Virus record (IMG/VR): IMGVR_UViG_3300038673_000493
Coordinates: 1 to 64,000 of that record
DNA: 64,000 nt
Origin: a virus
Lineage: Duplodnaviria; Caudoviricetes
Reading direction: 5' to 3' (one strand)
Positions 1-34,647 of the stretch are shown here, in pieces; the first letter of the stretch is position 1, and every line of letters starts with the position of its first letter. A program made the position numbers and the translations under genes. Under the pieces are notes generated by a model. The model was not told the origin of the DNA and did no database searches. It worked only from the letters and a program-made list of their open reading frames with translations.

Positions 1-2
1 AA

Positions 3-104
3 ATGAGAAAAGCAAATTTAGGTAAAACATTATCACAAACAACCCGAGATAAAATAGGAATGGCAGTAAGAAAGGCTTGTTTAGAAAGACACAAATTCCA
101 ATAA
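3..104 (+). CDS. C-terminal end of a probable homing endonuclease (NUMOD3-like tail), truncated by the window start
   Basis: Frame reads MRKANLGKTLSQTTRDKIGMAVRKACLERHKFQ*, resembling the NUMOD3 repeat (GKxxSxETKxKI). Confidence 0.45.
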   Translation: MRKANLGKTLSQTTRDKIGMAVRKACLERHKFQ

Positions 105-150
105 TATTGGAATAAATATAATTGTGTAGGAGAAAAAGAAAGGAATAATT

Positions 151-915
151 ATGGATGATAAAAAAGAAGCAATTATTTCCAAAATCATGAAGTTGATGGA
201 ATTAGGAAACGAGGAAAAAAACACTAATCCACATGAACGGGAGGCTGCTTCAAGAATGGCTGCTAAACTGATGGCAGATTACAGCATTGATTTTATTGAC
301 CTCAAAAACAATAAAATCAAAGATGATCCATTCGTAACTATCACAATTGATGGTTCGGCAGAGCAAAGAGTTGATTATGAAGGTTCTTTAGCTCATAATA
401 TTGCCAAAGCCTTTGATTGCAAGATGATAAATCAGACGGGTTACGATCATATATGGAGATTAATCTTCGTAGGATCAAAACATGATCTTGAAATAGCGAT
501 ATACTTCTTTAAATTTCTGCGGAGAACGCTCTATGCCATGAGTTCTATGAATGTGACTAGAGAATCACTTAAACAATCTAATCCCTATCTGGGACGCAAG
601 ATTACCGCAAAGTACATTGAAGAAGCCCGTCGAAATTATTGTTTTGGTCTTGTTCAAACAATTTCTGAACGATTGGAAGAACTTTACAAGAAGAAGGAAG
701 AATTTATTCCTGCTGATTGTAGGGATTTAGTCGTTGTCAGAAAAGATGATTTGGATAGATTCCTTAAGAGTCAATTTCCTAATCTCCGTAATCTGAAAGC
801 AACATCCTTGAAAGGGGATGTTGGAGCCTACAAGAAAGGTCTTGAAGATGGCAAAAATGTCAATCTGTCCAGACCGATTTCAAACACCGGAACATCTGCG
901 GCACAAATAGCATGA
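151..915 (+). CDS. DUF2786-domain protein
   Basis: N-terminus IISKIMKLMELG...HEREAASRMAAKLMADYSID matches the DUF2786 pattern; SD AAAGGA upstream. Confidence 0.75.
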   Translation: MDDKKEAIISKIMKLMELGNEEKNTNPHEREAASRMAAKLMADYSIDFIDLKNNKIKDDPFVTITIDGSAEQRVDYEGSLAHNIAKAFDCKMINQTGYDHIWRLIFVGSKHDLEIAIYFFKFLRRTLYAMSSMNVTRESLKQSNPYLGRKITAKYIEEARRNYCFGLVQTISERLEELYKKKEEFIPADCRDLVVVRKDDLDRFLKSQFPNLRNLKATSLKGDVGAYKKGLEDGKNVNLSRPISNTGTSAAQIA

Positions 916-916
916 T

Positions 917-983
917 GCAGAGGGGCGGAGTCAGAAATTCTTCTGACTTCGTGTAATGCACAATCTCCGTCCCAAGTCGGAGA
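917..983 (+). ncRNA. Twister ribozyme 1 (P5-type permutation); predicted cleavage U954/A955
   Basis: GCA-GAGGG-[P1 GCGGAGUCAGAA/UUCUGACUUCGU]-G-UAA-UGC-AC-AA-[P4 UCUCCG-UCCCAAGU-CGGAGA]; T1 GGG/CCC, T2 AC/GU. Confidence 0.88.
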
Positions 984-1010
984 AATAAAGAGAAAAGGAG
1001 AAAGAGAGAT

Positions 1011-1433
1011 ATGACAGACCTTACAAAAAAGGAAATATTGATGAATTTGAAAAGAATGCAATTCACCAGTCGGGAAATTGAAACGGCTTTAGAAAAATCT
1101 ATCGAGCATTGGAAAAAAGATATTCTAAACAGGTTGGAAAAAGATAAAATTGATCTCATGCAAAAGGATGATTCTCAATCTCTTTGTTGGAAATCCAATA
1201 ATGAAAGAGTCGTATGTTTTGCATCATGTTGCCCTTTATGTCAGTTGTTTCTTATTAAAACAATTGACGGAAATTGCATGCATTGCCCCTATACTTTATT
1301 TCATGATTATACTTGCAATTCCAACAGAAGTGGTTGGAGAAAATTTGTAAAAGATCCTTGCAAAGAAACTGCCAAACAGATGGTAAAAGAGTTGAAAGAT
1401 GCTTTGAAGTTTTGGAAAAAACTTATGGCATAA
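1011..1433 (+). CDS. Hypothetical Cys-rich protein; paralog of 28213..28641
   Basis: KSIEHWKKDIL, CCPLC and CMHCPY motifs are shared with the 28213 ORF. Confidence 0.7.
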   Translation: MTDLTKKEILMNLKRMQFTSREIETALEKSIEHWKKDILNRLEKDKIDLMQKDDSQSLCWKSNNERVVCFASCCPLCQLFLIKTIDGNCMHCPYTLFHDYTCNSNRSGWRKFVKDPCKETAKQMVKELKDALKFWKKLMA

Positions 1434-1435
1434 TT

Positions 1436-1494
1436 GCAGAGGGGGCGGAGTCAGAAACTCCGCTTAATGCACAATCACCGTCCCAAGTCGGTGA
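1436..1494 (+). ncRNA. Twister ribozyme 2; predicted cleavage U1465/A1466
   Basis: GCA-GAGGG-[GGCGGAGU/ACUCCGCU]-UAA-UGC-AC-AA-[UCACCG-UCCCAAGU-CGGUGA]. Confidence 0.93.
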
Positions 1495-1520
1495 AATAAA
1501 TAGAGAAAAGGAGAGAGAAA

Positions 1521-1703
1521 ATGCGATGCAATATGAGGGATTGTTATTTCAATAATACCCGAAATGAATGCAAATACAAAGAGTGGGCAGAAATGACAAA
1601 TGAACCTTTAAAAGAAATTATGTTGGATTCTAAAGGCACTTGTGTTTTCAGAAAATCAATGATGATTATTCCGGGTAAATCTGAACATTTTGTCAAAGAA
1701 TAA
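1521..1703 (+). CDS. Hypothetical small protein
   Basis: Strong SD AAAGGAG; lies exactly between ribozymes 2 and 3. Confidence 0.65.
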   Translation: MRCNMRDCYFNNTRNECKYKEWAEMTNEPLKEIMLDSKGTCVFRKSMMIIPGKSEHFVKE

Positions 1704-1704
1704 T

Positions 1705-1763
1705 GCAGAGAGGGCGGAATCTTCGATTCCGCTTAATGCACAATTCCAGTCTCAAGTCTGGAA
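1705..1763 (+). ncRNA. Twister ribozyme 3; predicted cleavage U1734/A1735
   Basis: GCA-GAGAG-[GGCGGAAUC/GAUUCCGCU]-UAA-UGC-AC-AA-[UUCCAG-UCUCAAGU-CUGGAA]; T1 covaries to GAG/CUC. Confidence 0.93.
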
Positions 1764-1821
1764 AATTTATAGAATAGAAAGGAGGAAAAGAGAGAATGAA
1801 AAAGTATGCTTTAGGAGGTGA

Positions 1822-2091
1822 TTGGTGGCTGATTTAATCACGGATAATTCAGATAAATCGGTAAGAATGTTAACCATAGCAGATTGTGAAAGTGCCCGAA
1901 AAATTTGTGAAGAAAAACTAGGAAAATTTCTTGTTGATGAAAGTGATCAGGAATTAGCCCAAGCAAAAATTGAAGCAGAAATTGCCATTTGGGATAGAAT
2001 CATGTTCCACTTAAATAACGGAGAAATTATCACAATCAATGACCAAAAACAAATTCATTGGGTACAATCAGAAATCAAAACAAAAAACTAG
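1822..2091 (+). CDS. Hypothetical protein (possibly frameshifted from an ATG at 1796)
   Basis: ORF track; SD AGGAGG before GTG 1825; see findings. Confidence 0.6.
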   Translation: MVADLITDNSDKSVRMLTIADCESARKICEEKLGKFLVDESDQELAQAKIEAEIAIWDRIMFHLNNGEIITINDQKQIHWVQSEIKTKN

Positions 2092-2153
2092 CAGAGAGAC
2101 AGGAAGTCAGAAATGACTTCCTGGTAATGCACATCTCGGTCTCAAGTCCGAGA
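2091..2153 (+). ncRNA. Twister ribozyme 4; predicted cleavage U2125/A2126
   Basis: GCA-GAGAG-A-[CAGGAAGUCA-GAAA-UGACUUCCUG]-G-UAA-UGC-AC-A-[UCUCGG-UCUCAAGU-CCGAGA]; the first G is the G of the upstream TAG stop. Confidence 0.92.
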
Positions 2154-2170
2154 AGAAAGGAGAAAGAGAG

Positions 2171-2593
2171 ATGGAAAAGAAAGTTGCCATATCAGTTCGT
2201 TTGAGAGGGACAAAATACAGGGAACCTGGCAGAGAAATTGAAGTGATTCACCGAGTTTTGCGATTTGAATCAATCGGAAATTTCAATCCAATTTTTTGCA
2301 CTTATCAAAATGAAAAATATTTAGTGCAATCATTGGAAGGAGATATTTCAGATCCTTTTCGCAGGAAAGAATCCTATCTAAATTCTTTGTATATTGAAAT
2401 TGCCTTTGTTTTCAAAAGAATCAAAAATGAACCTTATTGTATTTGTGCGGATGAAAAAGCTCTTGAGCAATATGCTTTAGGAGGTGGTTGGATAAGTCTT
2501 ACCGACTTCGTGCAAGATACAAAAGTTTATCCGGAAGAAATCATAGGCAAATGGTTCTATGTTGTTCACTCAAGAGTATTTGTTTTGGGGTAA
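2171..2593 (+). CDS. Hypothetical protein
   Basis: SD AAAGGAG; bounded by ribozymes 4 and 5. Confidence 0.7.
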   Translation: MEKKVAISVRLRGTKYREPGREIEVIHRVLRFESIGNFNPIFCTYQNEKYLVQSLEGDISDPFRRKESYLNSLYIEIAFVFKRIKNEPYCICADEKALEQYALGGGWISLTDFVQDTKVYPEEIIGKWFYVVHSRVFVLG

Positions 2594-2594
2594 T

Positions 2595-2659
2595 GCAGAG
2601 GGGGCGGAGTCAGAAATTCTGGTTCCGTCTAATGCACAATCACCGTCCCAAGTCGGTGA
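2595..2659 (+). ncRNA. Twister ribozyme 5; predicted cleavage U2630/A2631
   Basis: GCA-GAGGG-[GGCGGAGUCAGA/UCUGGUUCCGUC]-UAA-UGC-AC-AA-[UCACCG-UCCCAAGU-CGGUGA]. Confidence 0.93.
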
Positions 2660-2687
2660 AATAAAAAAGAAAAGGAGAAAGAGAAAT

Positions 2688-2930
2688 ATGTGGGTTATCA
2701 CGAATAATTTATTGGAACAAAATTTCGTTCACATTTGTTCAAAGGATTACAAGGAAAATTTTAAATTTAAATTAACCAAAAAATTTCGATTGCTTGATGG
2801 TGATGACAATATTTATTTTGAAGGATTATCGGATAATATAAACTTTGATCCTCTTGATGATTGGGGAATGCCCTTTTATGGATGTACAACAATTGAATAT
2901 TATGAAGATGATAAATGGGTTGTTCTGTAA
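2688..2930 (+). CDS. Hypothetical protein (start corrected to ATG 2688)
   Basis: The track start at 2559 runs through ribozyme 5; SD AAAGGAG precedes ATG 2688 (MWVITNN). Confidence 0.7.
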   Translation: MWVITNNLLEQNFVHICSKDYKENFKFKLTKKFRLLDGDDNIYFEGLSDNINFDPLDDWGMPFYGCTTIEYYEDDKWVVL

Positions 2931-2933
2931 CTT

Positions 2934-2996
2934 GCAGAAGGGCAGAAGCCAGAAATGGCTTCTGTTAATGCACATGTCAGGTCCTAAGTCCTGACA
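2934..2996 (+). ncRNA. Twister ribozyme 6; predicted cleavage U2966/A2967
   Basis: GCA-GAAGG-[GCAGAAGCCA-GAAA-UGGCUUCUGU]-UAA-UGC-AC-A-[UGUCAGG-UCCUAAGU-CCUGACA]; T1 covaries to AGG/CCU. Confidence 0.93.
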
Positions 2997-3023
2997 AATA
3001 AAATTTAAAGGAGAAAGAAAGAA

Positions 3024-3929
3024 ATGGAAAACACAGAAATGAACAAAGCAGTGGTAAATGAAATGGTAGAGTTGAATCCTGTGGAAAGAGCGGAGATCAG
3101 AAATCGGTATCCTGAAACGTATTTTCCTAATCCTGTCAAAGAGCCTATTTGGTATGGCAGAAGGGAGCATACAAGGATTGTTGAAAAGAATGCCATTATT
3201 GATCAGAATCTCCGTCCAGATCAGGAAAAGCCGACAGTTTTTGGAATTTGCAGTGACCATTACAAAGTTGTCTTTTATGAGGACATTGTGAAAATGGTTG
3301 AAGGTGTTGTTGACACAATCAAAGATTTCGGGGAAATCAAGATCAATCCGTACACTTATGCTGATGGTGGAAGATTGCGTATAAATCTGTCTTTCCCGGA
3401 AAAGAAAATCAATATCGTAAAAGGGGATAACATCATCCCGAAAATTGAAATCTTTTCCTCTTATGATTTGTCAACAATGCTGAAAGGACGCTTCGGGGCA
3501 TTTCAGTTGAAATGCACAAATGGAATGGGTGTTTGGAAAACATTCAAGAAATTTGCCAAACGTCACCTGCAAAATCTTCATCTGTCAGAATTGGAAGTTT
3601 CCATCATTGAAGGCATTGAAGTATTTGCACTTCAAGCAACAATGTGGAAAGAATGGGCTACTTTGAAGATTCCCCAGAAAGTCTATGAAGAAATCTGGAC
3701 CGATCTTCCTTTCAGTCCTACAGAAAAAGAGCGGATTGAAGCACTTCCCGAAATTGGCACGAAACTGCTTCTTCCGGATGCGTTGAAATCGAATGATTTG
3801 AATGTTTGGTCATTCAATTCTGTTCTGACCCAGTTTGCAACTCATGAGGTCAAAAGTGAACTTCGCAGGATTGAACTTGAACCAATCATTGCTCGTTCAA
3901 TGGAAAAACTCTACGATAGATTACACTAA
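3024..3929 (+). CDS. DUF932/DUF945-family phage protein
   Basis: YKVVFYEDIV and SYDLS...GAFQLKCTNGM motifs typical of the family. Confidence 0.75.
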   Translation: MENTEMNKAVVNEMVELNPVERAEIRNRYPETYFPNPVKEPIWYGRREHTRIVEKNAIIDQNLRPDQEKPTVFGICSDHYKVVFYEDIVKMVEGVVDTIKDFGEIKINPYTYADGGRLRINLSFPEKKINIVKGDNIIPKIEIFSSYDLSTMLKGRFGAFQLKCTNGMGVWKTFKKFAKRHLQNLHLSELEVSIIEGIEVFALQATMWKEWATLKIPQKVYEEIWTDLPFSPTEKERIEALPEIGTKLLLPDALKSNDLNVWSFNSVLTQFATHEVKSELRRIELEPIIARSMEKLYDRLH

Positions 3930-3931
3930 TT

Positions 3932-3989
3932 GCAGAGGGGGCGGAGCATTTGCTCCGTCTAATGCACAATTCCAGTCCCAAGTCTGGAA
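3932..3989 (+). ncRNA. Twister ribozyme 7; predicted cleavage U3960/A3961
   Basis: GCA-GAGGG-[GGCGGAGCA/UGCUCCGUC]-UAA-UGC-AC-AA-[UUCCAG-UCCCAAGU-CUGGAA]. Confidence 0.93.
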
Positions 3990-4015
3990 ATAAAACTGAA
4001 AGGAGAAAGAGAGAA

Positions 4016-4423
4016 ATGGTCATGAATATTGATGTAAAAACGGGCATTCATTATGGAGTAATTCATCATGCAAAAGTAGGACAGGCGTGGTATGATGAAT
4101 CAGATGCTTTGTTTCCAAACAAAGAAAATGGTGAAGATGATGATGATTTTGAACCTATAGGATTTTACATTGACAAAGATGGTTATGAAGCGTGTCAAGG
4201 TAATGATGATTGTGATATATTCATTACAAAATCACCGTTTTATACCATTTGTAAATTATGTTCCCCGTGTGCTCCGAATGCGGGCTACATAATGGATTCA
4301 GATCCTAAAGGATACAAAACGTATTGCTTTGGCCATGATTGGTTTGAAACAAATCAAGCACCTTATCCTGTTTATGATGTAAAAACGGGATTTCTTGTTC
4401 CGATCTTGGCAAAAGAAGATTAA
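4016..4423 (+). CDS. Hypothetical protein (CKLCSPCAP motif; start corrected to 4016)
   Basis: SD AAAGGAG before ATG 4016; the track start at 3950 lies inside ribozyme 7. Confidence 0.7.
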   Translation: MVMNIDVKTGIHYGVIHHAKVGQAWYDESDALFPNKENGEDDDDFEPIGFYIDKDGYEACQGNDDCDIFITKSPFYTICKLCSPCAPNAGYIMDSDPKGYKTYCFGHDWFETNQAPYPVYDVKTGFLVPILAKED

Positions 4424-4430
4424 CATTCTT

Positions 4431-4488
4431 GCAGAGGGCTCCATCAGAAATGATGGAGTAATGCACAGTCTCGGTCCCAAGTCCGAGA
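4431..4488 (+). ncRNA. Twister ribozyme 8; predicted cleavage U4459/A4460
   Basis: GCA-GAGGG-[CUCCAUCA-GAAA-UGAUGGAG]-UAA-UGC-AC-AG-[UCUCGG-UCCCAAGU-CCGAGA]. Confidence 0.93.
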
Positions 4489-4515
4489 AATAAAATCGAA
4501 AGGAGAAAGAGAGAT

Positions 4516-4812
4516 ATGAAAAAGTATTTGATTACCATCTTGGTAATTTTGCTCACAATTCCTACAATGGCAAATGCTTTTATTTGCGGAAACAATTTGG
4601 CCAGTGAAGGAATGAGTAAATACCAAATTTTAAGCAACTGTGGTTCTCCTGCTTTAAAAGAACGTGTTGGTGCAGACTATTCAAATAGTTCCTACCGTAT
4701 CATTGAGAAATGGCTTTATGTCGTCAATGAATATGGAAACCAACAAATGTATCTTATTGAATTTAATGGAGACGGAATTGCTGTCAAAATCGACTACATT
4801 GGAAAAAGATAA
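4516..4812 (+). CDS. DUF2845-family exported protein
   Basis: Signal peptide, then FICGNNLASEGMSKYQILSNCGSP...IEKWLY...YLIEF pattern. Confidence 0.7.
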   Translation: MKKYLITILVILLTIPTMANAFICGNNLASEGMSKYQILSNCGSPALKERVGADYSNSSYRIIEKWLYVVNEYGNQQMYLIEFNGDGIAVKIDYIGKR

Positions 4813-4813
4813 T

Positions 4814-4871
4814 GCAGAGAGCAGGAACAGAAATGTTCCTGTAATGCACAATCCCAGTCTCAAGTCTGGGA
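4814..4871 (+). ncRNA. Twister ribozyme 9; predicted cleavage U4842/A4843
   Basis: GCA-GAGAG-[CAGGAACA-GAAA-UGUUCCUG]-UAA-UGC-AC-AA-[UCCCAG-UCUCAAGU-CUGGGA]. Confidence 0.93.
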
Positions 4872-4897
4872 AATAAAGAGAAAAGGAGAAAGAAAGA

Positions 4898-5389
4898 ATG
4901 GCGGAAGAAGAATTTACTTTTGAAGGCAGGGAAATCACAGTACAATTCAACAACAAACCTTTTGAAGTCCGTTTAGAAAAATCAAGATACAAAAATGGAC
5001 AATTAGCAGTATTTGGAGTTAATCCTGATGATGATGAAATTTTTTGTGAATTGACCATTCATATTCCAGATTTAAAAAATCCTGGTAATAAAATTTATGT
5101 TTGGGATTGTATACTTCACAAAAATTTCATTGAAGCATTAAAAAATTCAGGATGGTTTAAAACAACAAGTGTTTCTTTTTATTCTGAAACAGTAATGGGG
5201 TTCACAGAAGTTTGGGAACCTACTGTTGAAAAACAGAATGCCCGAAAACAATGCTATTCAAAATGGAAATGTCCTCTATGTAAACATATCATAGAAGGCC
5301 TAACTTTTGTTGAAATAGCAATTATAGGGACACCTATATGCAAAAATTGTGATATGCCTATGGACTTTTCTGAAGAATACATTAAGTAA
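4898..5389 (+). CDS. Hypothetical protein, DUF4313-like N-terminus with C-terminal CxxC...CxxC zinc ribbon
   Basis: YKNGQLAV...FCELTIHI; CPLC and CKNC. Confidence 0.55.
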   Translation: MAEEEFTFEGREITVQFNNKPFEVRLEKSRYKNGQLAVFGVNPDDDEIFCELTIHIPDLKNPGNKIYVWDCILHKNFIEALKNSGWFKTTSVSFYSETVMGFTEVWEPTVEKQNARKQCYSKWKCPLCKHIIEGLTFVEIAIIGTPICKNCDMPMDFSEEYIK

Positions 5390-5398
5390 GGAGAATCC

Positions 5399-5548
5399 AT
5401 GAAATCTAAAGATGAAATCCGAAAAGTCAATTGTGTTTGTTTTCTTTGTACCAGAAGAAGCAAAAAATCCTTCAACGTAACAAAACAAAGATGGTGTAAA
5501 AAGTACAAATGTCCTTGTGGTTCAACCTCTTTTAGTTGGTTTGTTTAG
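5399..5548 (+). CDS. Small Cys-rich protein (49 aa, not in the ORF track)
   Basis: SD TAAGGAG; MKSKDEIRKVNCVCFLC...CKKYKCPCGSTSFSWFV*; its TAG overlaps ribozyme 10. Confidence 0.6.
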   Translation: MKSKDEIRKVNCVCFLCTRRSKKSFNVTKQRWCKKYKCPCGSTSFSWFV

Positions 5549-5605
5549 CAGAGGGGCAGGAATGAAAGTTCCTGCTAATGCACAATCCCAGTCCCAAGTC
5601 TGGGA
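5548..5605 (+). ncRNA. Twister ribozyme 10; predicted cleavage U5576/A5577
   Basis: GCA-GAGGG-[GCAGGAAU-GAAA-GUUCCUGC]-UAA-UGC-AC-AA-[UCCCAG-UCCCAAGU-CUGGGA]. Confidence 0.93.
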
Positions 5606-5632
5606 AATAAAATGAAAGGAGAAAGGGAGATT

Positions 5633-6094
5633 ATGTCAGAAGAAATCAAAGAAGAAAGTTATATGGTGGAAAAAAGTAAAATTTTGGAGGCTGCTAAAAA
5701 ATGCGCCACAACAAAGGCGGCTTTGAAAATTTTATTCCCAGAAGCATTTAAAGGAATTTACTACAGATCGGGAGATTTATTTGCCGTTACTGATAAACAA
5801 GCTTTGAATACAAGGTTGACAATCAGTAAATATTTCAAGGATGAAGAAGGTATTCTTGAAATAGGCACAAGAGTTCATTTAGGAACAGTCCGAATTGCTG
5901 TGAATCATTGTGTGGTGCTAATTCATGATGGAGGACAATATCAATACCGACTTGTTCATTTGGCTACAGGTTATGCTTTTAATAATAAAAGTTATAAAAG
6001 AACTGATGAAGGTATTGAAATTCCGTCCGAAGATTTATCAGGATTGGTGCTTTGTTTTGAAGGACTTTCAAAACCCAAAACAACACCAGTTTAA
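5633..6094 (+). CDS. Hypothetical protein
   Basis: SD before ATG 5633; its stop abuts the hammerhead. Confidence 0.7.
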   Translation: MSEEIKEESYMVEKSKILEAAKKCATTKAALKILFPEAFKGIYYRSGDLFAVTDKQALNTRLTISKYFKDEEGILEIGTRVHLGTVRIAVNHCVVLIHDGGQYQYRLVHLATGYAFNNKSYKRTDEGIEIPSEDLSGLVLCFEGLSKPKTTPV

Positions 6095-6095
6095 A

Positions 6096-6160
6096 ATCGA
6101 AACCGGCAGAAATGCCGGTCTAAACAAGATGGCAACTTGTTTACTGAAGATGATAAGCCA
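6096..6160 (+). ncRNA. Type II hammerhead ribozyme; predicted cleavage after GUC at C6120
   Basis: AUC-GAAA-[III CCGGCA-GAAA-UGCCGG]-UC^-[I UAAACAAG-AUGGCAA-CUUGUUUA]-CUGAAGA-U-GAU-AA-GCCA. Stem II is AUC/GAU; loop I UGGC can pair with the 3' GCCA as a pseudoknot. Confidence 0.8.
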
Positions 6161-6187
6161 AAATAATTTGAAAGGAGAAAGAAAGAA

Positions 6188-6346
6188 ATGAAAGTACCAA
6201 AAGGAATGAAAGAAGTAAAAGAAAATTCGGTTTTTGGAGAATGTGAGGACAGAAAAGGTTCCGGAGAATTTGAAGAATTTGAAAAAAGGAATAATTTGAA
6301 AGATTCGGAATTTCTTTTTGCTGAAATCGCAAAAAAAAGGAACTGA
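6188..6346 (+). CDS. Small hypothetical protein (52 aa, not in the ORF track)
   Basis: SD AAAGGAG after the hammerhead; MKVPKGMKEVKENSVFGECEDRK...KKRN*. Confidence 0.55.
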   Translation: MKVPKGMKEVKENSVFGECEDRKGSGEFEEFEKRNNLKDSEFLFAEIAKKRN

Positions 6347-6521
6347 TAAAAGCCTTCGTTTTATCGGGAATTTATCAAATCCGATCAACATTATGGGGGT
6401 ATTGGAATTTTTATATTCCTTACATCCAGAAATTTTTCTATCATTCGTAGCATCTCATACCAGAGACTTAACAGAGGTTGTAAATTCAATGATGGAAAAT
6501 TCTTCAAAAGAACCACATTAA
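6318..6521 (+). CDS. Hypothetical protein (start uncertain)
   Basis: ORF track; its TAA abuts ribozyme 11. Confidence 0.45.
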   Translation: MLKSQKKGTDKSLRFIGNLSNPINIMGVLEFLYSLHPEIFLSFVASHTRDLTEVVNSMMENSSKEPH

Positions 6522-6524
6522 TTT

Positions 6525-6581
6525 GCAGAGGGCTCCGACATTAAGTCGGAGTAATGCACAATCTCGGTCCCAAGTCCGAGA
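6525..6581 (+). ncRNA. Twister ribozyme 11; predicted cleavage U6552/A6553
   Basis: GCA-GAGGG-[CUCCGAC-AUUAA-GUCGGAG]-UAA-UGC-AC-AA-[UCUCGG-UCCCAAGU-CCGAGA]. Confidence 0.93.
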
Positions 6582-6606
6582 AATAGAGAGAGAAAGGAGA
6601 GAGAAA

Positions 6607-7401
6607 ATGTATTTGCAAATCACCAATAAATGCAACATGAATTGCCGACATTGTGGTTTTTCTTGCAATCGAAAAGGAATTCACATGGAATGGGAAACTT
6701 TCATCAATGCAATTCAATTTATCCGTGATCGTGATGATGAAACAATTACTATAGGTGGTGGAGAACCTACTTTGCATCCAAGATTTTTTGACATACTAAA
6801 AATCTGTTTGGATGATTTTAATTATGTTTGGATGGCTACTAATGGCAGCCAAACAAATGCTATGATTAGATTAGCCAACATCATAGATAATTGTGATTAT
6901 GAATCATTTTCACGGGGAGATTATTGCACTTGTGAAGAAGATCCTGACGATTGTGAATGCTGGCCAGATAAAGCAATCTATCAAGATGGTAAATTAACAG
7001 TTGCTTTATCTCTTGATTATTTCCATTCCCCAATTAATGATAAAATAGTTGAATTGTGGAAAAACAGAAGCAAATGTTCCAGTTTCAATTTCCATAATAA
7101 CTATCAAATTAGGGATGTGACAATTAGTCATAGTGGCGTAGTTAAATCAGGTCGTGCAATTCGATCGGGTGTTTGGCAAGATGAATCAAATTGTATATGT
7201 CCGAATACTCATATTGCTCCTAATGGAGATGTGAAGTTATGTGGTTGCAGAAATTCTCCTATATTGGGAAATGTCAATACTTCAGTAGATGATGAATCCC
7301 TTGAATTTTTTAGGGATAATGATATTGATTGTATAAAAAACATGACTAAAAAATTAAGGAGGATATATGAAACGAAGGCATATCAAACATTATCTGATTG
7401 A
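6607..7401 (+). CDS. Radical SAM protein with C-terminal SPASM/twitch-like cysteines (start corrected to 6607)
   Basis: YLQITNKCNMNCRHC (CxxxCxxC), GGGEPTLHP, ATNG. Confidence 0.85.
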   Translation: MYLQITNKCNMNCRHCGFSCNRKGIHMEWETFINAIQFIRDRDDETITIGGGEPTLHPRFFDILKICLDDFNYVWMATNGSQTNAMIRLANIIDNCDYESFSRGDYCTCEEDPDDCECWPDKAIYQDGKLTVALSLDYFHSPINDKIVELWKNRSKCSSFNFHNNYQIRDVTISHSGVVKSGRAIRSGVWQDESNCICPNTHIAPNGDVKLCGCRNSPILGNVNTSVDDESLEFFRDNDIDCIKNMTKKLRRIYETKAYQTLSD

Positions 7402-7618
7402 ATCCCCGGTCATTAAAGGCAAAGAAGGTGATGAAGTCAAATATCCCGTTAGTTGTAACTACAATGGAGGCATTGTAATTAACGGAAAATGGTATGACGG
7501 CTTCATCGTAGGACAACCATTGTTACCAAAAGGATTAGAATTGCAAAGCATCGGAGTTGGGCTACAGCTTAATGCTACACCACCTCTAGCAACTGCCATT
7601 CTAGTCAGAAAAAAGTGA
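7367..7618 (+). CDS. Hypothetical protein
   Basis: ORF track, overlapping gene chain. Confidence 0.5.
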   Translation: MKRRHIKHYLIESPVIKGKEGDEVKYPVSCNYNGGIVINGKWYDGFIVGQPLLPKGLELQSIGVGLQLNATPPLATAILVRKK

Positions 7619-7860
7619 ACCAAATGCATATCATTCACGAATCCACAATTAGAAACGAAAGCGGAGTTATTGAGATAACAATATTTATTGTCAATAAAAA
7701 AACGGCTAAACGCTATACCTATGGATTGTCTAGTTCATGGGCAGCGGAACAGTTTCACAAATGGTATCGTAAAGGCAGAGTTTTTCATGGAAAAGCCCTG
7801 CAATTTTTAAAAAATTTTCAATTGAAAGGAGAAAGAGAGTATGGAGAAAACCCCCGATAA
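7615..7860 (+). CDS. Hypothetical protein
   Basis: ORF track, GTGA overlap with the previous ORF. Confidence 0.55.
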   Translation: MNQMHIIHESTIRNESGVIEITIFIVNKKTAKRYTYGLSSSWAAEQFHKWYRKGRVFHGKALQFLKNFQLKGEREYGENPR

Positions 7861-8164
7861 CGCCTTGAATAAATTTTGGAGACCGTCATGGCCGAAAACT
7901 GTAATTCCGAGATACAGAAAGCTTTTGTTCAGATCAAATTGGTACATCTATGATTACAAGAAATTTGATCTGGTAAAAGACATTGCAGGTAATGTAATTA
8001 CAGTTTCCGATATAAAAAACCATTTCGGACAAACAGAAGAACAAAGGAACTTTTACAAAATTTTTGAGGAGCTTGTTCGAACTGATATGGTCAATCAAAT
8101 GACTTTAATCAAGAACAGGGAAGAGGCAATAATTGCCAACCGTAAAAAAGAAGGATTTGGCTGA
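7841..8164 (+). CDS. Hypothetical protein
   Basis: SD AAAGGAG. Confidence 0.6.
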   Translation: MEKTPDNALNKFWRPSWPKTVIPRYRKLLFRSNWYIYDYKKFDLVKDIAGNVITVSDIKNHFGQTEEQRNFYKIFEELVRTDMVNQMTLIKNREEAIIANRKKEGFG

Positions 8165-8216
8165 TACCTTATAAAATATTATCAGCAAATAAAAAGAGAA
8201 AAGGAGAAAGAAGCTT

Positions 8217-8423
8217 ATGGGAAAGATTAGAGTAGCATGGAACAAGAACCATACGAAAAGTGTGGTCTTGCAAAAGCTGAAGGAATTTTCTATTAACGAA
8301 AACCATGATAATACCTTCAGAGTCAGTGGATGGTACAACAAAGAAAATGCTTTTATTTTCGGTGATTTCAATACAAGAGAAGAAGCCGAAACATATCTGC
8401 AAGAAATCCACAATTTATTTTAA
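8217..8423 (+). CDS. Hypothetical protein
   Basis: SD AAAGGAG. Confidence 0.6.
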   Translation: MGKIRVAWNKNHTKSVVLQKLKEFSINENHDNTFRVSGWYNKENAFIFGDFNTREEAETYLQEIHNLF

Positions 8424-8452
8424 AATAACCTGGAAAAAAGCTTGACAAAAGT

Positions 8453-8770
8453 ATGACTAACAACTACAAAAACAATGAGGATTGCATGACTAAATACACC
8501 ATTTACCCTTGTACCGAATTAACATGGTTAAGACTGTTTAGGCGTATCAAAAAAGTGGCTAAAGAATCAAACATGTTCATTTCTGTAATAGATATTAAAC
8601 CTCAAGAAATACCGAAAGAAGTACAAGTCAAAATGAATCCATTAATTCACACAAAAAATTGGAAGAAGAAAACAAATTCTTTTGTGCCTAATCACATTAC
8701 AACAATCATTTTGGAGAATGAACAAGATGAACAAAACCAAAAACGTCAGAAATTCTTGTCCGAAACCTAA
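8453..8770 (+). CDS. Hypothetical protein
   Basis: ORF track; GAGG SD before the internal ATG of MTKY. Confidence 0.5.
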   Translation: MTNNYKNNEDCMTKYTIYPCTELTWLRLFRRIKKVAKESNMFISVIDIKPQEIPKEVQVKMNPLIHTKNWKKKTNSFVPNHITTIILENEQDEQNQKRQKFLSET

Positions 8771-9050
8771 GAAAATTTTACATAAAAGAAATCCTGAAAA
8801 ATATGAAAAAGAAGCTAAAGAACTCCTATCAATAACTCGTTTGCGAACTTATATGGACGGAGAACTTTGGAGAGAGATTCAAGAAATTTCCAGACTTCTT
8901 GAAAAATCGGTAGTATCACACAAAAAATCGGTGGAGCAAATCGTTGTTGACACAAAGAAAATAATGAAAGAGCGGGAAAATCTTTATGTTTCGCAAGCAA
9001 TTGGTTTTCTTTACACCGATTTTTTCTATATTTTGAAATCAAATAAGTAA
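8718..9050 (+). CDS. Hypothetical basic protein
   Basis: SD GGAG before ATG 8718; contains PKPKKILHKR. Confidence 0.55.
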   Translation: MNKMNKTKNVRNSCPKPKKILHKRNPEKYEKEAKELLSITRLRTYMDGELWREIQEISRLLEKSVVSHKKSVEQIVVDTKKIMKERENLYVSQAIGFLYTDFFYILKSNK

Positions 9051-9063
9051 AGGAGGAAAGACC

Positions 9064-9291
9064 ATGATGATGAAAAAGAAGGCATTAACTCCGAAATCTC
9101 TAACGCCGAAGGTAGAAAAGCCTAAAGACAGAATGCTTTGGGTTCGTTTGCCAGATGCTCTTAACAAGAGATTTCAAAAACAATGTGAACGATTGTCAGT
9201 AGGAGACGGTACGCTTGCAAGAATGGCAATTGTGAAACTTGTTGAGGAAGAGGAAGCGAAAGAGCGTGAACTAGCAAGAAACAAATCTTAA
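9064..9291 (+). CDS. Ribbon-helix-helix (CopG/Arc-like) DNA-binding protein
   Basis: MLWVRLPDALNKRFQKQCERLSVGDGTLARMAIVKLVE fits the strand-helix-helix pattern. Confidence 0.55.
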   Translation: MMMKKKALTPKSLTPKVEKPKDRMLWVRLPDALNKRFQKQCERLSVGDGTLARMAIVKLVEEEEAKERELARNKS

Positions 9292-9331
9292 ACCTTTAAC
9301 ACCAAGAAGTAAAGAGAAAGAGAGGGAAATT

Positions 9332-9805
9332 ATGGAATGTAAATACTGTGCCTTTTTCCAAGAATCTCCGACCAGATTCGGAAAAGGGGAAGAAAGGTTC
9401 TGTAATCATGTTCATCGGGTGGTTTCAGAAAATAAAGAAATTTGTGAAGATGGTTTTGAAGCTTATTATTTATTCTGGTGTGAAAAATCTAATGCTTGGT
9501 TAGATTTACCTGTATGTTCTGCTCGACAATCTAAAGGATATTCAGAATGTTCTAAATGCAGACAAAAACAGGACATTATGGAAATCAGAAGATTCATGGG
9601 CAGAAAAGCACGATTGAATGGGACTGCTCCGAAACCTATCATTAAGAAAAAAGAGAGTGAAGAAAAGGAGCCGGAAAAACCGAAACCTAAAATCATTCTG
9701 CATAAGAAACAACCTGAGGAAAAACCTAAGCCCAAAATGATCTTACACAAGAAGGCCAAAGAGTCAGAAATTCCTAAACCTATCAAAAAGATAATTAAGA
9801 AGTAG
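9332..9805 (+). CDS. Cys-rich hypothetical protein with Lys/Pro-rich tail
   Basis: Several CxxC pairs; repeated KPKPKxILHKK. Confidence 0.6.
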   Translation: MECKYCAFFQESPTRFGKGEERFCNHVHRVVSENKEICEDGFEAYYLFWCEKSNAWLDLPVCSARQSKGYSECSKCRQKQDIMEIRRFMGRKARLNGTAPKPIIKKKESEEKEPEKPKPKIILHKKQPEEKPKPKMILHKKAKESEIPKPIKKIIKK

Positions 9806-9814
9806 GAGGATTTC

Positions 9815-10165
9815 ATGTCAGGAAAGAAAGAGAATGTGGAAGATGCCGCTTACATATTTTGGAGCAACACCGTTGATATTTATGATGTAAGCATTCTCCA
9901 AGAAGTTTCTGAAATACATTCGATTAATCCAGAAACTCTTTTAATTGAAAAAGATAATCTGAAAAATTCTTTAACTAAAGAATGCAGAATTGTGGCTGAT
10001 ACCATACTAAATTTGCCAGAAGAAATGTTTCTTGTGAATGGCAAACTAAAGAAAACAGCCCTGAAAAAAATCCTTAAACAGAAATTAGGATGGTCAAACA
10101 CCAAGATCAATCGCATCAACGAAAGTTTGGCTAGACAATTATTGGACATGGGATATTCAGTTTAA
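9815..10165 (+). CDS. Hypothetical protein, possible HTH / sigma-region-4-like
   Basis: SD AGGAGG; helical C-terminus; the function is a weak guess. Confidence 0.45.
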   Translation: MSGKKENVEDAAYIFWSNTVDIYDVSILQEVSEIHSINPETLLIEKDNLKNSLTKECRIVADTILNLPEEMFLVNGKLKKTALKKILKQKLGWSNTKINRINESLARQLLDMGYSV

Positions 10166-10192
10166 TTCCGCTAAACATTTTTAACAAAATTC

Positions 10193-10201
10193 TGCTATAA
10201 T
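10193..10201 (+). promoter_or_regulatory. Extended -10 promoter element TGCTATAAT before the helicase
   Basis: Same motif recurs intergenically at 23141 (TGCTACAAT), 28170 and 34670. Confidence 0.6.
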
Positions 10202-10220
10202 AAAGAAAAGAGGGAAATCT

Positions 10221-11624
10221 ATGCCTGAATTTTGGATTAAATTTTTAGATCCGATAGAAAGCAAAATGTCTCCGGCACTTTATAAAGTGATTAAAGATCA
10301 TTTATCGTATCCTGCCGTCTATTACAGACAATCTCCGTTTAAGAAAAAACGGGAAGAGTTCATGAAAAGAACTTTTATTGGACACGATAAAGAAGGGTGG
10401 TTTTTCTATACAGGATTTGTTCCGAGAGTGAGAGAATTTTGCATCAAAAACAAAATTGCCTTACATGAAGAAATTGAAACATACGGTTTAACTTATAAAG
10501 AACCAGCTCTACCTATGGGTATTGATGCACGATCATTTCAGATTGATATGGTTGAAAAAGTTATTGAATTAGAACGGGGAATATTAAAAGCTCCGACAGG
10601 TACGGGGAAAACAATTTTAGGTCTTTACGTTATTTCTTGTTTAGACGGACTTGGGAATATTCTATGGCTTTGTCATACCAAAGATTTAATGTATCAAACA
10701 GCAGATGAAGCAGTTAAATGGTTTGGTTCAGAAAATGTTGGCAGAGTAGGAGACAGTCAATTACAACTCGGAAGATTTTTTACTTCTGCCACAAGACAAA
10801 CTTTCAAAGAACATGCAGAACAATGGGGAACTGAATATGACATGATTGTTTTAGATGAAGCTCACCATCTTTCTGCCTTTCCTTATCGTGATCGTTATGG
10901 AAATGAAGTTGGAGAATATGGTTGGATATTCAAGAGAATCTTTGCTCCAATTCGTATAGGATTAACTGCTACAATGCCTGATAAGATTGAATCAAAGATG
11001 GCAATGGAAGCTTTAATCGGTCCTATTTTAGAAGAATTTACAATCAAAGAAGCAGAGGATCAAGGGTATATGGCAAAACCAATTATCAAGATTAAAAAAA
11101 TTCCAGCATCTGAAAATGTCAAACAGTATAGAAAATATTCCGATGTATATGAATGGGGAATTGTCCGGCGTTTAGAACGAAACAGAATCATCATTGATAT
11201 TGTCCAACAACATCAAGAAAAAAATGAATCGGTTCTAATCGTTGTGAATAAAATTGATCATGGAGTTCTTCTCAAAAATCTCGGAGACAGAAGAAATCTT
11301 GAAATAGAATTTATTCATGGGGAAACAGATTCAGCAACCAGAGCATCCGCTAAAAAATTATTGAACAGCAAACGTTTGAAATGCGTTATTTGCACTTCAG
11401 TTTGGAAAGAGGGAGTAAATATTCCCGAATTAAATGTAATCATAAATGCGGCTGGTGGAAAATCTGAACTAAATACATTGCAAGTAATCGGTAGAGGATT
11501 AAGAAAAACAGACAACAAGACCGAATTGATTATCTATGATTTTTTTGATCCTTCTCATCATTATCTCATTTCTCATTTTGGAGAACGTCTAACTCTTTAT
11601 ATGGAAATGGGATGGATCAGCTAA
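10221..11624 (+). CDS. Superfamily 2 DEAD/H helicase (UvsW/XPB-like)
   Basis: APTGTGKT, LDEAHH, GLTAT, QVIGRGLR. Confidence 0.92.
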   Translation: MPEFWIKFLDPIESKMSPALYKVIKDHLSYPAVYYRQSPFKKKREEFMKRTFIGHDKEGWFFYTGFVPRVREFCIKNKIALHEEIETYGLTYKEPALPMGIDARSFQIDMVEKVIELERGILKAPTGTGKTILGLYVISCLDGLGNILWLCHTKDLMYQTADEAVKWFGSENVGRVGDSQLQLGRFFTSATRQTFKEHAEQWGTEYDMIVLDEAHHLSAFPYRDRYGNEVGEYGWIFKRIFAPIRIGLTATMPDKIESKMAMEALIGPILEEFTIKEAEDQGYMAKPIIKIKKIPASENVKQYRKYSDVYEWGIVRRLERNRIIIDIVQQHQEKNESVLIVVNKIDHGVLLKNLGDRRNLEIEFIHGETDSATRASAKKLLNSKRLKCVICTSVWKEGVNIPELNVIINAAGGKSELNTLQVIGRGLRKTDNKTELIIYDFFDPSHHYLISHFGERLTLYMEMGWIS

Positions 11625-12241
11625 TGAATACAAAAAAATGTAAAGTTTTTAATTGTGAAAATTCTTACCACGCAAAAGGGTATTGTAGAAGGCATTACCA
11701 TCAAATATTTTATTACGGTGAAATAAAAAACAGAACATGGTTTGATAAAAATAATTTCATTATTGAAAATGACATAACAAAGATAATTTTGTTTAACCAA
11801 AAACAAATCAAAGTTGGTGAAGCTTTAATAGATACAAAATATTTGAAAAAATGCCAAAATATAAAATGGAGATTGCATAAAGGATATGTTGTAGGTTTCC
11901 CCAAAATAAAATTATCAGAATTTATTTTTGGAAAGAAAAAATATGATAGTACAATTATTGATCATATAGACAGTAATCCTTTAAACAACAAACGAAACAA
12001 TCTCCAAGAAATAACTAACCAACAAAATCAAATAAAAAAGAAAATGCAAGGAAACAATACCTCTAAATATAGAGGAGTTACTTACAATAAAAATGCTAAA
12101 AAATGGCAAACCACAATAGTAAAAAATTATAAACATTATTATTTGGGATTGTTTTCTGATAAAAAAGAAGCCGCTTTAGCTTATAATAAAAAAGCCAAAG
12201 AATTATTTGGTAGGTTTGCTATATTAAATAAGGTAAATTAA
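11624..12241 (+). CDS. HNH homing endonuclease with AP2 DNA-binding domain
   Basis: DHIDSNPLNNKRNNLQ; SKYRGVTYNK...WQTTI...YLGLFSDKKEAALAYN. Confidence 0.9.
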   Translation: MNTKKCKVFNCENSYHAKGYCRRHYHQIFYYGEIKNRTWFDKNNFIIENDITKIILFNQKQIKVGEALIDTKYLKKCQNIKWRLHKGYVVGFPKIKLSEFIFGKKKYDSTIIDHIDSNPLNNKRNNLQEITNQQNQIKKKMQGNNTSKYRGVTYNKNAKKWQTTIVKNYKHYYLGLFSDKKEAALAYNKKAKELFGRFAILNKVN

Positions 12242-33714: not shown

Positions 33715-34647
33715 ATGGAATTGAATTTGAAACACCGTCCTAAAAAGATTAAAGACATTTTCGGAAATGAATCTGTAAAAGAAAGTATCACCAGTATTTT
33801 AAACAGAGATCAAGAAAACATTCCTCATGCTTTCTTATTTCACGGTCCTACTGGTACAGGGAAAACAACAATGGCAAGAATACTTGCTAATGAGCTAGGA
33901 TGCCCTGCTGATGAAATTATAGAATATAATACGGCTTCTATGAGAGGAATTGATACCATAAGAAACATTATAGAAGATTGTGTTTATGCACCTCTTGAGG
34001 GCTATTCAAAAGTATATATTCTTGATGAAGTTCACCGACAAACCAAAGATGCTCAAAATGCTTTATTGAAATTAGCAGAAGAACCACCTAAACAAGTTTA
34101 CATTATCTTATGCACCACGGATCCTGAAAAATTAATACCTGCTCTTTTAGGAAGATGCACCACATATCAAATGAAACCTTTAAGACCCACAGAAATGACA
34201 AAATTGATTGATCATATTTTAGATGTAGAAGGTTTTGCTCCTACTGAATATCCATCAAGAATAAAAAAAGAAATTATCAGATTATCAGAATGCTTACCAC
34301 GAAATGCATTAAAGCTTTTAGATGCTATTATTGATATGCAAGACGAGGATGCCATCATAGATGCTCTTTCTGCCGTATCTTTAGATACTGTAGAAGCAAA
34401 AGAACTATTCAATGCTCTTTTAAAAGGAGAATCATGGGATAATGTTCGTAAGATGGTGAAAACATTACTAGAAGCAAACGAACCTGAACAAATAAGGTTA
34501 GGTCTTTTAGGGTATATGAGAAATGTTTTGCTTAACTCAAAATCAAATGACAGAGCTTCCTATATCATTGATACTTTTAGCGAAAATACTTATAACGCAG
34601 GAGCATCTTTATTGGTAAACATGTTTTATTCGGTTTGTAAAAAATAA
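33715..34647 (+). CDS. dnaX: Clamp loader, DNA polymerase III gamma/tau-like AAA+ ATPase
   Basis: HAFLFHGPTGTGKTT; KVYILDEVH; AQNALLKLAEEPP; GRC. Confidence 0.88.
   Translation: MELNLKHRPKKIKDIFGNESVKESITSILNRDQENIPHAFLFHGPTGTGKTTMARILANELGCPADEIIEYNTASMRGIDTIRNIIEDCVYAPLEGYSKVYILDEVHRQTKDAQNALLKLAEEPPKQVYIILCTTDPEKLIPALLGRCTTYQMKPLRPTEMTKLIDHILDVEGFAPTEYPSRIKKEIIRLSECLPRNALKLLDAIIDMQDEDAIIDALSAVSLDTVEAKELFNALLKGESWDNVRKMVKTLLEANEPEQIRLGLLGYMRNVLLNSKSNDRASYIIDTFSENTYNAGASLLVNMFYSVCKK

Follow-up and report, generated by a model that had tools for sequence, protein, structure and literature searches.

The virus record IMGVR_UViG_3300038673_000493 is a complete genome of 90,579 bp, the first 64 kb of which form the stretch analysed here (the window). 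The genome is that of an uncultivated tailed phage, with capsid, protease and terminase genes that all lie on the minus strand. On the plus strand it carries an array of 20 twister ribozymes set between small genes, and judging from the sequence we consider it probable that this array cuts two long messages into single-gene messenger RNAs (mRNAs) with a hairpin at both ends.

The ribozyme array

An Rfam scan of the 64 kb identified 11 elements and all 11 are full-length matches to Twister-P5 (RF02684, clan CL00120) above the gathering cut-off of 37.6 bits. They lie on the plus strand between 916 and 6579 and score 39.6-58.3 bits (Table 1, in which the numbers 10-20 follow the whole-genome numbering). 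No further ribozyme family reached Rfam gathering level in the window, and a permissive scan of positions 1-12000 returned nothing credible beyond the 11 twisters. Across the whole genome 20 of 20 twisters are above the cut-off and on one strand. Nine of these are outside the window at 86733-89810; together with those at 916-6579 they therefore constitute one block of ~10.4 kb that spans the assembly join, a 55-bp terminal repeat indicating a circular assembly. There are 20 Twister-P5 matches in the phage as against none in 14 control genomes, and the array pattern is far beyond chance.

The plus-strand block continues beyond the array into replication and 7-deazaguanine-pathway genes. Because plus-strand replication genes adjoin the array while the structural genes are on the minus strand, we place the array at the front of the rightward block of early genes. 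Only two plus-strand promoters match at 11 of 12 positions, at 85606-85634 and 89857-89885 of the genome. Both are near-consensus sigma-70 promoters, TTGACA-17-TATACT, and both fall outside the window. No terminator-like site was found on the plus strand of window positions 1-9000 and the slots at the gene junctions are too tight to hold promoters. We therefore interpret the array as two long transcription units, carrying ribozymes 1-9 and 10-20. The arrangement is that of a ribozyme-punctuated operon, in which same-strand self-cleavers flank single genes at almost every junction, here behind two promoters.

Conservation of the catalytic fold

A covariance model built from the 20 phage copies was used to gather 118 twisters from 14 phage arrays. 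In the alignment of these 118 sequences standard pairs fill 98.7% of the pair cells, compared with 70.3% in shuffles and 26-40% with slid partners, and two-sided changes are present at 17 of the 19 pairs. The cells of P1, P2 and P4 are paired to 99.0, 99.4 and 99.8%, with two-sided changes at 12 of these 13 pairs, figures that benefit from an alignment fitted to the same helices. The pseudoknots T1 and T2 are absent from the covariance model, and their counts therefore do not depend on how the alignment was made. Pairing of T1 is complete (100%), with GC, AU, UA and CG variants and two-sided changes at all three of its pairs, and is Watson-Crick in cis in 116 of the 118 ribozymes. A T2 pair occurs as A-U in 101 sequences and as G-C in 11.

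The phage's own copies agree with this. T1 is Watson-Crick in all 20, as GGG/CCC in 12, GAG/CUC in six and AGG/CCU in two, and T2 has the AC/GU form in 19, with GC/GC in the remaining one (genome 87743). The columns G2 C3 A4 G5 A6, UAAUGC, GUC and AAG are invariant in 20 of 20. The P1 hairpin comprises 7-13 bp and folds on its own at -9.9 to -20 kcal/mol; its closing pair, beside the scissile U, is formed in 93% of the 118 sequences. We considered whether the elements might be inactive relics and ruled this out, since compensatory change is seen in all helices and in both pseudoknots. The catalytic fold itself is therefore under selection, and from their sequences the 20 phage twisters are almost certainly active.

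The copies share P1/P2/P4, T1/T2, the invariant core and the U^A cleavage step after P1 with RF02684, the class of Roth et al. (2014) according to PMC6765202. Two differences are apparent. The RF02684 consensus has T2 as G-C/C-G, whereas T2 of the phage is A-U/C-G in 19 of 20 copies, and 20 copies occupy regular gene junctions in a single phage.

A probable hammerhead in one slot

One slot with a long spacer lacks a twister and is filled instead by a probable type II hammerhead variant at 6096-6160. The earlier note, made from the letters of this DNA only, had already spoken of a hammerhead. Rfam does not endorse that assignment, there being no match to RF02276 even at E <= 10 on 141 nt, while a strict descriptor supports it. 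All the core letters, CUGANGA, GAAA and UH, are in place, and the minimum free energy structure consists of two adjacent hairpins, stem I (8 bp) and stem III (7 bp), with a z-score of -3.46. A 4-bp pseudoknot between loop I and the 3' part is possible. Less canonical are the one extra U following CUGAAGA (after A9) and the short stem II of 3 bp. The descriptor matched three times in 1.04 Mb of phage loci, compared with zero in the reversed sequence and in five shuffles. One of the other two matches, at 1202-1249 of locus L031, shares the additional U behind CUGANGA and is likewise missed by Rfam. The other, canonical in form, occupies a slot of a five-twister array (locus L058, 6358-6416, minus strand) and is a Hammerhead_II match of 33.9 bits, against a cut-off of 37. 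No homologous element was found in locus L078 and hence there is no covariation to draw on for 6096-6160. Since a type II hammerhead also cuts between two closed hairpins, two unrelated ribozyme classes would thus give the same hairpin-cut-hairpin geometry.

Spacing from stop and start codons

The ribozymes begin -2 to 15 nt from the upstream stop codon in the 20 copies and -2 to 6 nt from it within the window. Four overlap a TAG, two of which are in the window (2090 and 5547). From the end of the ribozyme to the next ATG there are 19-34 nt of purine-rich leader, with GGAG 7-19 nt past the ribozyme. These values bear out the earlier note, which had described ribozymes abutting the upstream stops, two of them over the TAG, and ending about 15-35 nt before the next start. 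The same register is kept in 15 other phage contigs of 37-68% GC, where the gap between stop and ribozyme has a median of 0 nt (interquartile range -2 to 2, n = 77) and that between ribozyme and start a median of 28 nt (interquartile range 25-31, n = 73). The predicted cut site is 29-41 nt beyond the stop codon and therefore a ribosome finishing the upstream gene would never meet the broken end.

Proposed processing of the messages

Twister cleavage leaves 5'-OH and 2',3'-cyclic phosphate ends. In the type-P5 topology the scissile U^A directly follows the closed P1 hairpin and precedes the closed P4 hairpin by 11-12 nt. Our model is that the two sigma-70 promoters drive long transcripts across ~25 small genes, with a type-P5 twister at nearly every junction. 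Each ribozyme would fold while it is being transcribed, forming P2, P1, P4, T1 and T2, and cut itself at U^AAUGC to release linear single-gene mRNAs of ~200-1000 nt. The upstream product would end in a P1 hairpin of the length given above followed by a single U with a 2',3'-cyclic phosphate. The downstream product would begin with 5'-OH-AAUGCAC, then a linker of 3-4 nt, the P4 hairpin of 4 bp and a purine-rich Shine-Dalgarno leader that is uniform and unstructured. This much of the earlier proposal, with its two types of chemical end, P4 near the 5' end and P1 at the 3' end, is upheld by the topology and by twister chemistry; its further step to circular products is not. Its uniform leaders are also supported. 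In its native context the unit 4813-4869 folds into P2/P1 and P4 (z-score -5.25), leaving the Shine-Dalgarno leader and the start codon unpaired.

Such processing would probably insulate the translation of each gene from its neighbours, provide a standard leader and place the 3' end out of reach of 3' exonucleases and poly(A) polymerase. The arrangement resembles insulators of the RiboJ type, in which a self-cleaver upstream of the ribosome-binding site strips off the upstream context and leaves a standard hairpin leader. Unlike RiboJ, the phage array is natural, is present at every junction and would also shape the 3' end of the upstream message.

Some considerations weigh against this model. 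P4, at 11-12 nt from the 5' end, is rather far away for a classic 5' stabiliser. Nor is a 5'-OH always protective: in B. subtilis the glmS product, which bears such an end, decays in a manner that depends on RNase J1 (PMC6765202, citing its ref. 22). Any stabilisation of the mRNA by hairpin ends would therefore depend on the host. The identity, covariation and placement of the ribozymes and the promoters are seen in the sequence, from which we infer cleavage in vivo, the chemistry of the ends and a change in mRNA stability and yield.

Alternative explanations

Exchange of gene modules. Twister arrays are common in IMG/VR. Rfam identified 13 twisters in a complete phage of 89 kb and 11, 14, 8 and five in four fragments, and the covariance model applied to further loci added arrays of 12, 10, 8 and seven; the gathering-level matches in 15 array loci are Twister-P5 in 94 of 94 cases. 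A scan of genome contigs with a twister pattern yielded nothing but chance matches; in 80 of its 120 loci, searched with the same model, there was no convincing twister, the best reaching 27.6 bits; the phage's own copies score 60-82 bits. Genes of different arrays share 31-98% amino-acid identity. The backbone genes B-C-D-E keep a constant order in five related arrays, and accessory cassettes (J, K, N, F and L) change slots, which fits a hyperplastic early region.

It is conceivable, then, that the units of ribozyme and leader serve mainly as module boundaries, short conserved sequences around each small early gene through which recombination could rearrange, add or remove accessory cassettes among related phages, RNA cleavage being secondary, in a manner comparable to the promoter/stem-loop cassettes of T4-type phages. 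The conserved backbone and shifting cassettes favour this, as do a recombination scar after twister no. 12 and the insertion of a NUMOD3 gene with its own promoter after no. 9 (both described below) and the breaking of Logan assembly contigs within repeated twister k-mers. We nevertheless regard it as unlikely. A plain repeat would do equally well as a boundary, yet all the helices and both pseudoknots are maintained by compensatory change, and P1 and P4 have diversified, leaving shorter stretches of identity (within the array the variable parts average 0.67 in identity). That within-array identity is marginally above the between-phage values of 0.60-0.66 in a test for concerted evolution. Twisters of orthologous slots in G000 and L115 are 0.56-0.74 identical, against a background of 0.64 ± 0.08. 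They are no more alike than background, so co-inheritance of gene and ribozyme could not be demonstrated; comparison of these slots gave no signal for inheritance with either the upstream or the downstream gene.

Circular messages. The earlier note also proposed circular mRNAs. The ends of a cassette would be joined by a host RtcB-type ligase or by the twister reaction run backwards, in a hybrid fold that combines the 3' half of ribozyme n with the 5' half of ribozyme n + 1. If the ribozymes cut, the end chemistry is appropriate, since 5'-OH and 2',3'-cyclic phosphate ends are RtcB substrates (PMC8782182). RtcB is common in prokaryotes and was found in 10 of the 14 control genomes. All copies have the same P2, and the T1 strands at the two ends of a cassette could form Watson-Crick pairs in 8 of 19 cassettes here and in 13 of 13 in phage G001. 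The pairs of units listed as compatible by the note (1-2, 3-4 and 7-8) are correct, and units 10-11 are compatible too.

The comparison with chance is less encouraging. The 8 of 19 here compares with 8.2 ± 1.8 in shuffled arrays, and over 14 arrays trans compatibility of T1 is 63 of 104 against 59.2 ± 3.3 shuffled (P = 0.15), or 31 of 72 where T1 varies. With T1 almost invariably paired in cis and at chance level in trans, selection therefore sees only the cis fold. Moreover, the search for RtcB over the rest of the genome, as the note had advised, was negative: neither RtcB nor an Rnl-type ligase nor a member of the 2H/LigT family turned up in the complete phage, only a weak P-loop match in a 310-residue open reading frame (ORF) at 33715-34647 having been returned for RNA ligase families, and no RtcB was found in five other array-bearing records. 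Contact between the ends would be limited to ~3 bp of P2 and 3 bp of T1, with T2 entirely within the 3' fragment. A ligated junction with compatible T1 is an intact twister and should therefore re-cut and open the circle. In the case of phage hammerhead clusters, Perreault et al. (2011) could detect neither spliced nor circular RNAs when they searched for them (PMC3088659). On these grounds we consider circular products very unlikely.

A comparison with the engineered Tornado system is instructive. There too an RNA is released between two twister cuts with 5'-OH and 2',3'-cyclic phosphate ends and RtcB joins them, with a designed stem holding the ends together and no ribozyme being rebuilt. 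The phage array has no end-holding stem, no ligase was found in the phage, and where T1 is compatible the joined ends would form an active twister again.

A Logan contig encoding an exact match to the DUF932-like protein covers window positions 2637-4871 and terminates inside twisters. We rejected its termini as RNA ends: they are at repeated k-mers and 7 nt off the cut site, an assembly effect.

Translation-gated cleavage. Least probable of all, and in our view highly so, is that the terminating ribosome covers the 5' strand of the ribozyme (P2 and T1) so that cutting reports, or is timed by, translation of the upstream gene; the tight stop-to-ribozyme distance at differing GC and the many overlaps with TAG show a precision not obviously needed for compaction alone, but compactness is general among phage genomes, the active secondary structure is adopted directly in the native context and no switch feature (alternative pairing or ligand pocket) was found in the sequence. 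Gating of this kind would be compatible with the processing into single-gene mRNAs that we favour and does not exclude it.

Genes of the array and their surroundings

The features of the window that belong to the array are collected in Table 1. The gene at 151-915 corresponds to the conserved backbone gene D of related arrays. Several small proteins (1011-1433, 1521-1703, 4016-4423, 4898-5389 and 5399-5548) are rich in cysteine, with CxxC-type pairs and no Pfam match, and are possibly zinc-binding factors for host takeover or anti-defence.

Table 1. Features of the ribozyme array in the window. Scores are Rfam bit scores; cut sites are predicted.
Feature	Position	Strand	Basis	Cut after	T1	Remarks
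DUF2786 + DUF7168 gene (phrog_421)	151-915	+	Pfam, PHROGs			Second gene of second transcription unit, upstream of twister no. 10
Twister-P5 no. 10	916-981	+	39.6 bits	U954	GGG/CCC	Starts 0 nt past TGA 913-915; ATG 1011 is 29 nt beyond its end
Small cassette ORFs (all)	1011-6521	+	ORF lists, Pfam			Each between two ribozymes
Cassette ORF	1011-1433	+				
Twister-P5 no. 11	1435-1492	+	50.2 bits	U1465	GGG/CCC	
Cassette ORF	1521-1703	+				
Twister-P5 no. 12	1704-1761	+	46.7 bits	U1734	GAG/CUC	
Cassette ORF	1825-2091	+				
Twister-P5 no. 13	2090-2151	+	48.4 bits	U2125	GAG/CUC	Overlaps TAG 2089-2091
Cassette ORF	2171-2593	+				
Twister-P5 no. 14	2594-2657	+	46.0 bits	U2630	GGG/CCC	
Cassette ORF	2688-2930	+				
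Twister-P5 no. 15	2933-2993	+	48.4 bits	U2966	AGG/CCU	
Cassette ORF	3024-3929	+	Pfam			Weak DUF932
Twister-P5 no. 16	3931-3987	+	55.6 bits	U3960	GGG/CCC	
Cassette ORF	4016-4423	+				
Twister-P5 no. 17	4430-4486	+	58.3 bits	U4459	GGG/CCC	
Cassette ORF	4516-4812	+	Pfam			DUF2845/BamE-like
Twister-P5 no. 18	4813-4869	+	55.7 bits	U4842	GAG/CUC	
Cassette ORFs	4898-5389 + 5399-5548	+				
Twister-P5 no. 19	5547-5603	+	56.3 bits	U5576	GGG/CCC	Overlaps TAG 5546-5548
Cassette ORF	5633-6094	+				
Probable type II hammerhead variant	6096-6160	+	Strict descriptor and two-hairpin minimum free energy structure	C6120		GAA 6099-6101; stem III 6102-6119; stem I 6121-6143; CUGAAGA 6144-6150
Cassette ORFs	6188-6346/6318-6521	+				
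Twister-P5 no. 20	6524-6579	+	53.8 bits	U6552	GGG/CCC	Last of array
Radical-SAM gene	6607-7401	+				Behind twister no. 20

Two places in the window depart from the regular layout. After twister no. 12 the canonical ATG at 1796 opens a frame of 13 codons and the gene proper starts near GTG 1825. Within 1796-1837 some 26 nt resemble an internal piece of the gene 2171-2593 (tatgctttaggaggtg) and supply a new Shine-Dalgarno sequence for GTG 1825; in the relative L115 the homologue of this gene begins right at the canonical ATG. The segment 1796-1837 is probably a recombination scar. The frames 6188-6346 and 6318-6521 overlap, meeting at a run of eight A near 6330-6340, and 6188-6521 may be a single gene whose frame shifts, whether by programmed slippage or through a sequencing error.

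Outside the window, the downstream promoter at 89857-89885 lies after twister no. 9 and ahead of the NUMOD3 gene. The standard leader behind twister no. 9 opens just a vestigial frame of six codons that overlaps this TTGACA-17-TATACT promoter (genome 89840-89905; 9840-9905 of locus L002). The NUMOD3 gene, homing-endonuclease-like and 240 amino acids long, crosses the assembly join and extends to position 104 of the window; it has the look of a free-standing endonuclease gene that has been inserted in the array with its own promoter. The first early promoter is followed by ~590 nt that have no convincing ORF (genome 85606-86229; 5606-6229 of L002). A 12-bp hairpin capped by GAAA, with a partly U-rich tail, is found at genome 86132-86159 and is a possible attenuator preceding the first array gene. 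In L115 it is instead a twister that precedes the homologous first gene.

Further along the window, between 10221 and 23060, Pfam identifies intein splicing domains in two proteins, along with a LAGLIDADG domain and an HNH endonuclease. They are adjoined by preQ0 pathway genes, namely FolE, QueD, QueC and a radical-SAM QueE-like protein. This suggests a genome rich in selfish elements and with 7-deazaguanine modification of its DNA. No transfer RNA genes were found in the phage. Cultured phages are at best distant relatives, with ~25-28% identity in the capsid protein and 21-24% in the polymerase.

Relation to previous work and implications

The concept is not new. Ribozyme clusters that flank phage genes, the processing of polycistronic RNA and the idea of circles are already in the literature (PMC3088659; PMC6765202, section 13). 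Clustered hammerheads flanking single prophage genes behave as expected, cleaving both in vitro and in E. coli, and a role in mRNA processing has been proposed for them (PMC3088659; reviewed in PMC6765202). Like the prophage clusters of Perreault et al. (2011), for which single-gene processing was proposed, the present array has several same-strand self-cleavers between phage genes. Those clusters are of hammerheads around single genes or short gene blocks, whereas here the twister class is used together with one probable hammerhead. The present array is also larger and more regular, with 20 + 1 slots in ~10.4 kb of a lytic-type 90-kb phage, and its register with the stop and start codons has been quantified. 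Our literature search found no paper on twister arrays of such size or on the stop/start register. The array is a large, clean case of a known concept, to which we add the register statistics, the neighbour-compatibility test against circles and the product geometry shared by two ribozyme classes.

A broader interpretation can be entertained, though we think it improbable as a whole. Early operons may use selected punctuation, in which a self-cleaver of any class is retained provided that it has the hairpin-cut-hairpin permutation (P1 and P4 about the cut in the type P5 twister, stem III and stem I in the type II hammerhead) and keeps its register with the stop (median 0 nt) and the start (median 28 nt). 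All early mRNAs would then carry a hairpin with a cyclic phosphate at the 3' end and a hairpin leader with a 5'-OH, and so evade end-dependent decay by the host; where the host has active RtcB, a fraction of them could become circular, translatable mRNAs.

The biological role of bacterial and phage twisters is still called elusive (PMC6765202; PMC11662667). Natural variants of P1, P4 and T1 are a source of orthogonal insulator parts. The phage itself, with 20 sequence-diverse natural twisters and a probable hammerhead in two transcription units and at fixed codon spacing, provides a compact test bed in which the relation of ribozyme processing to mRNA stability and yield, the choice of permutation and the formation of circles can all be tested.

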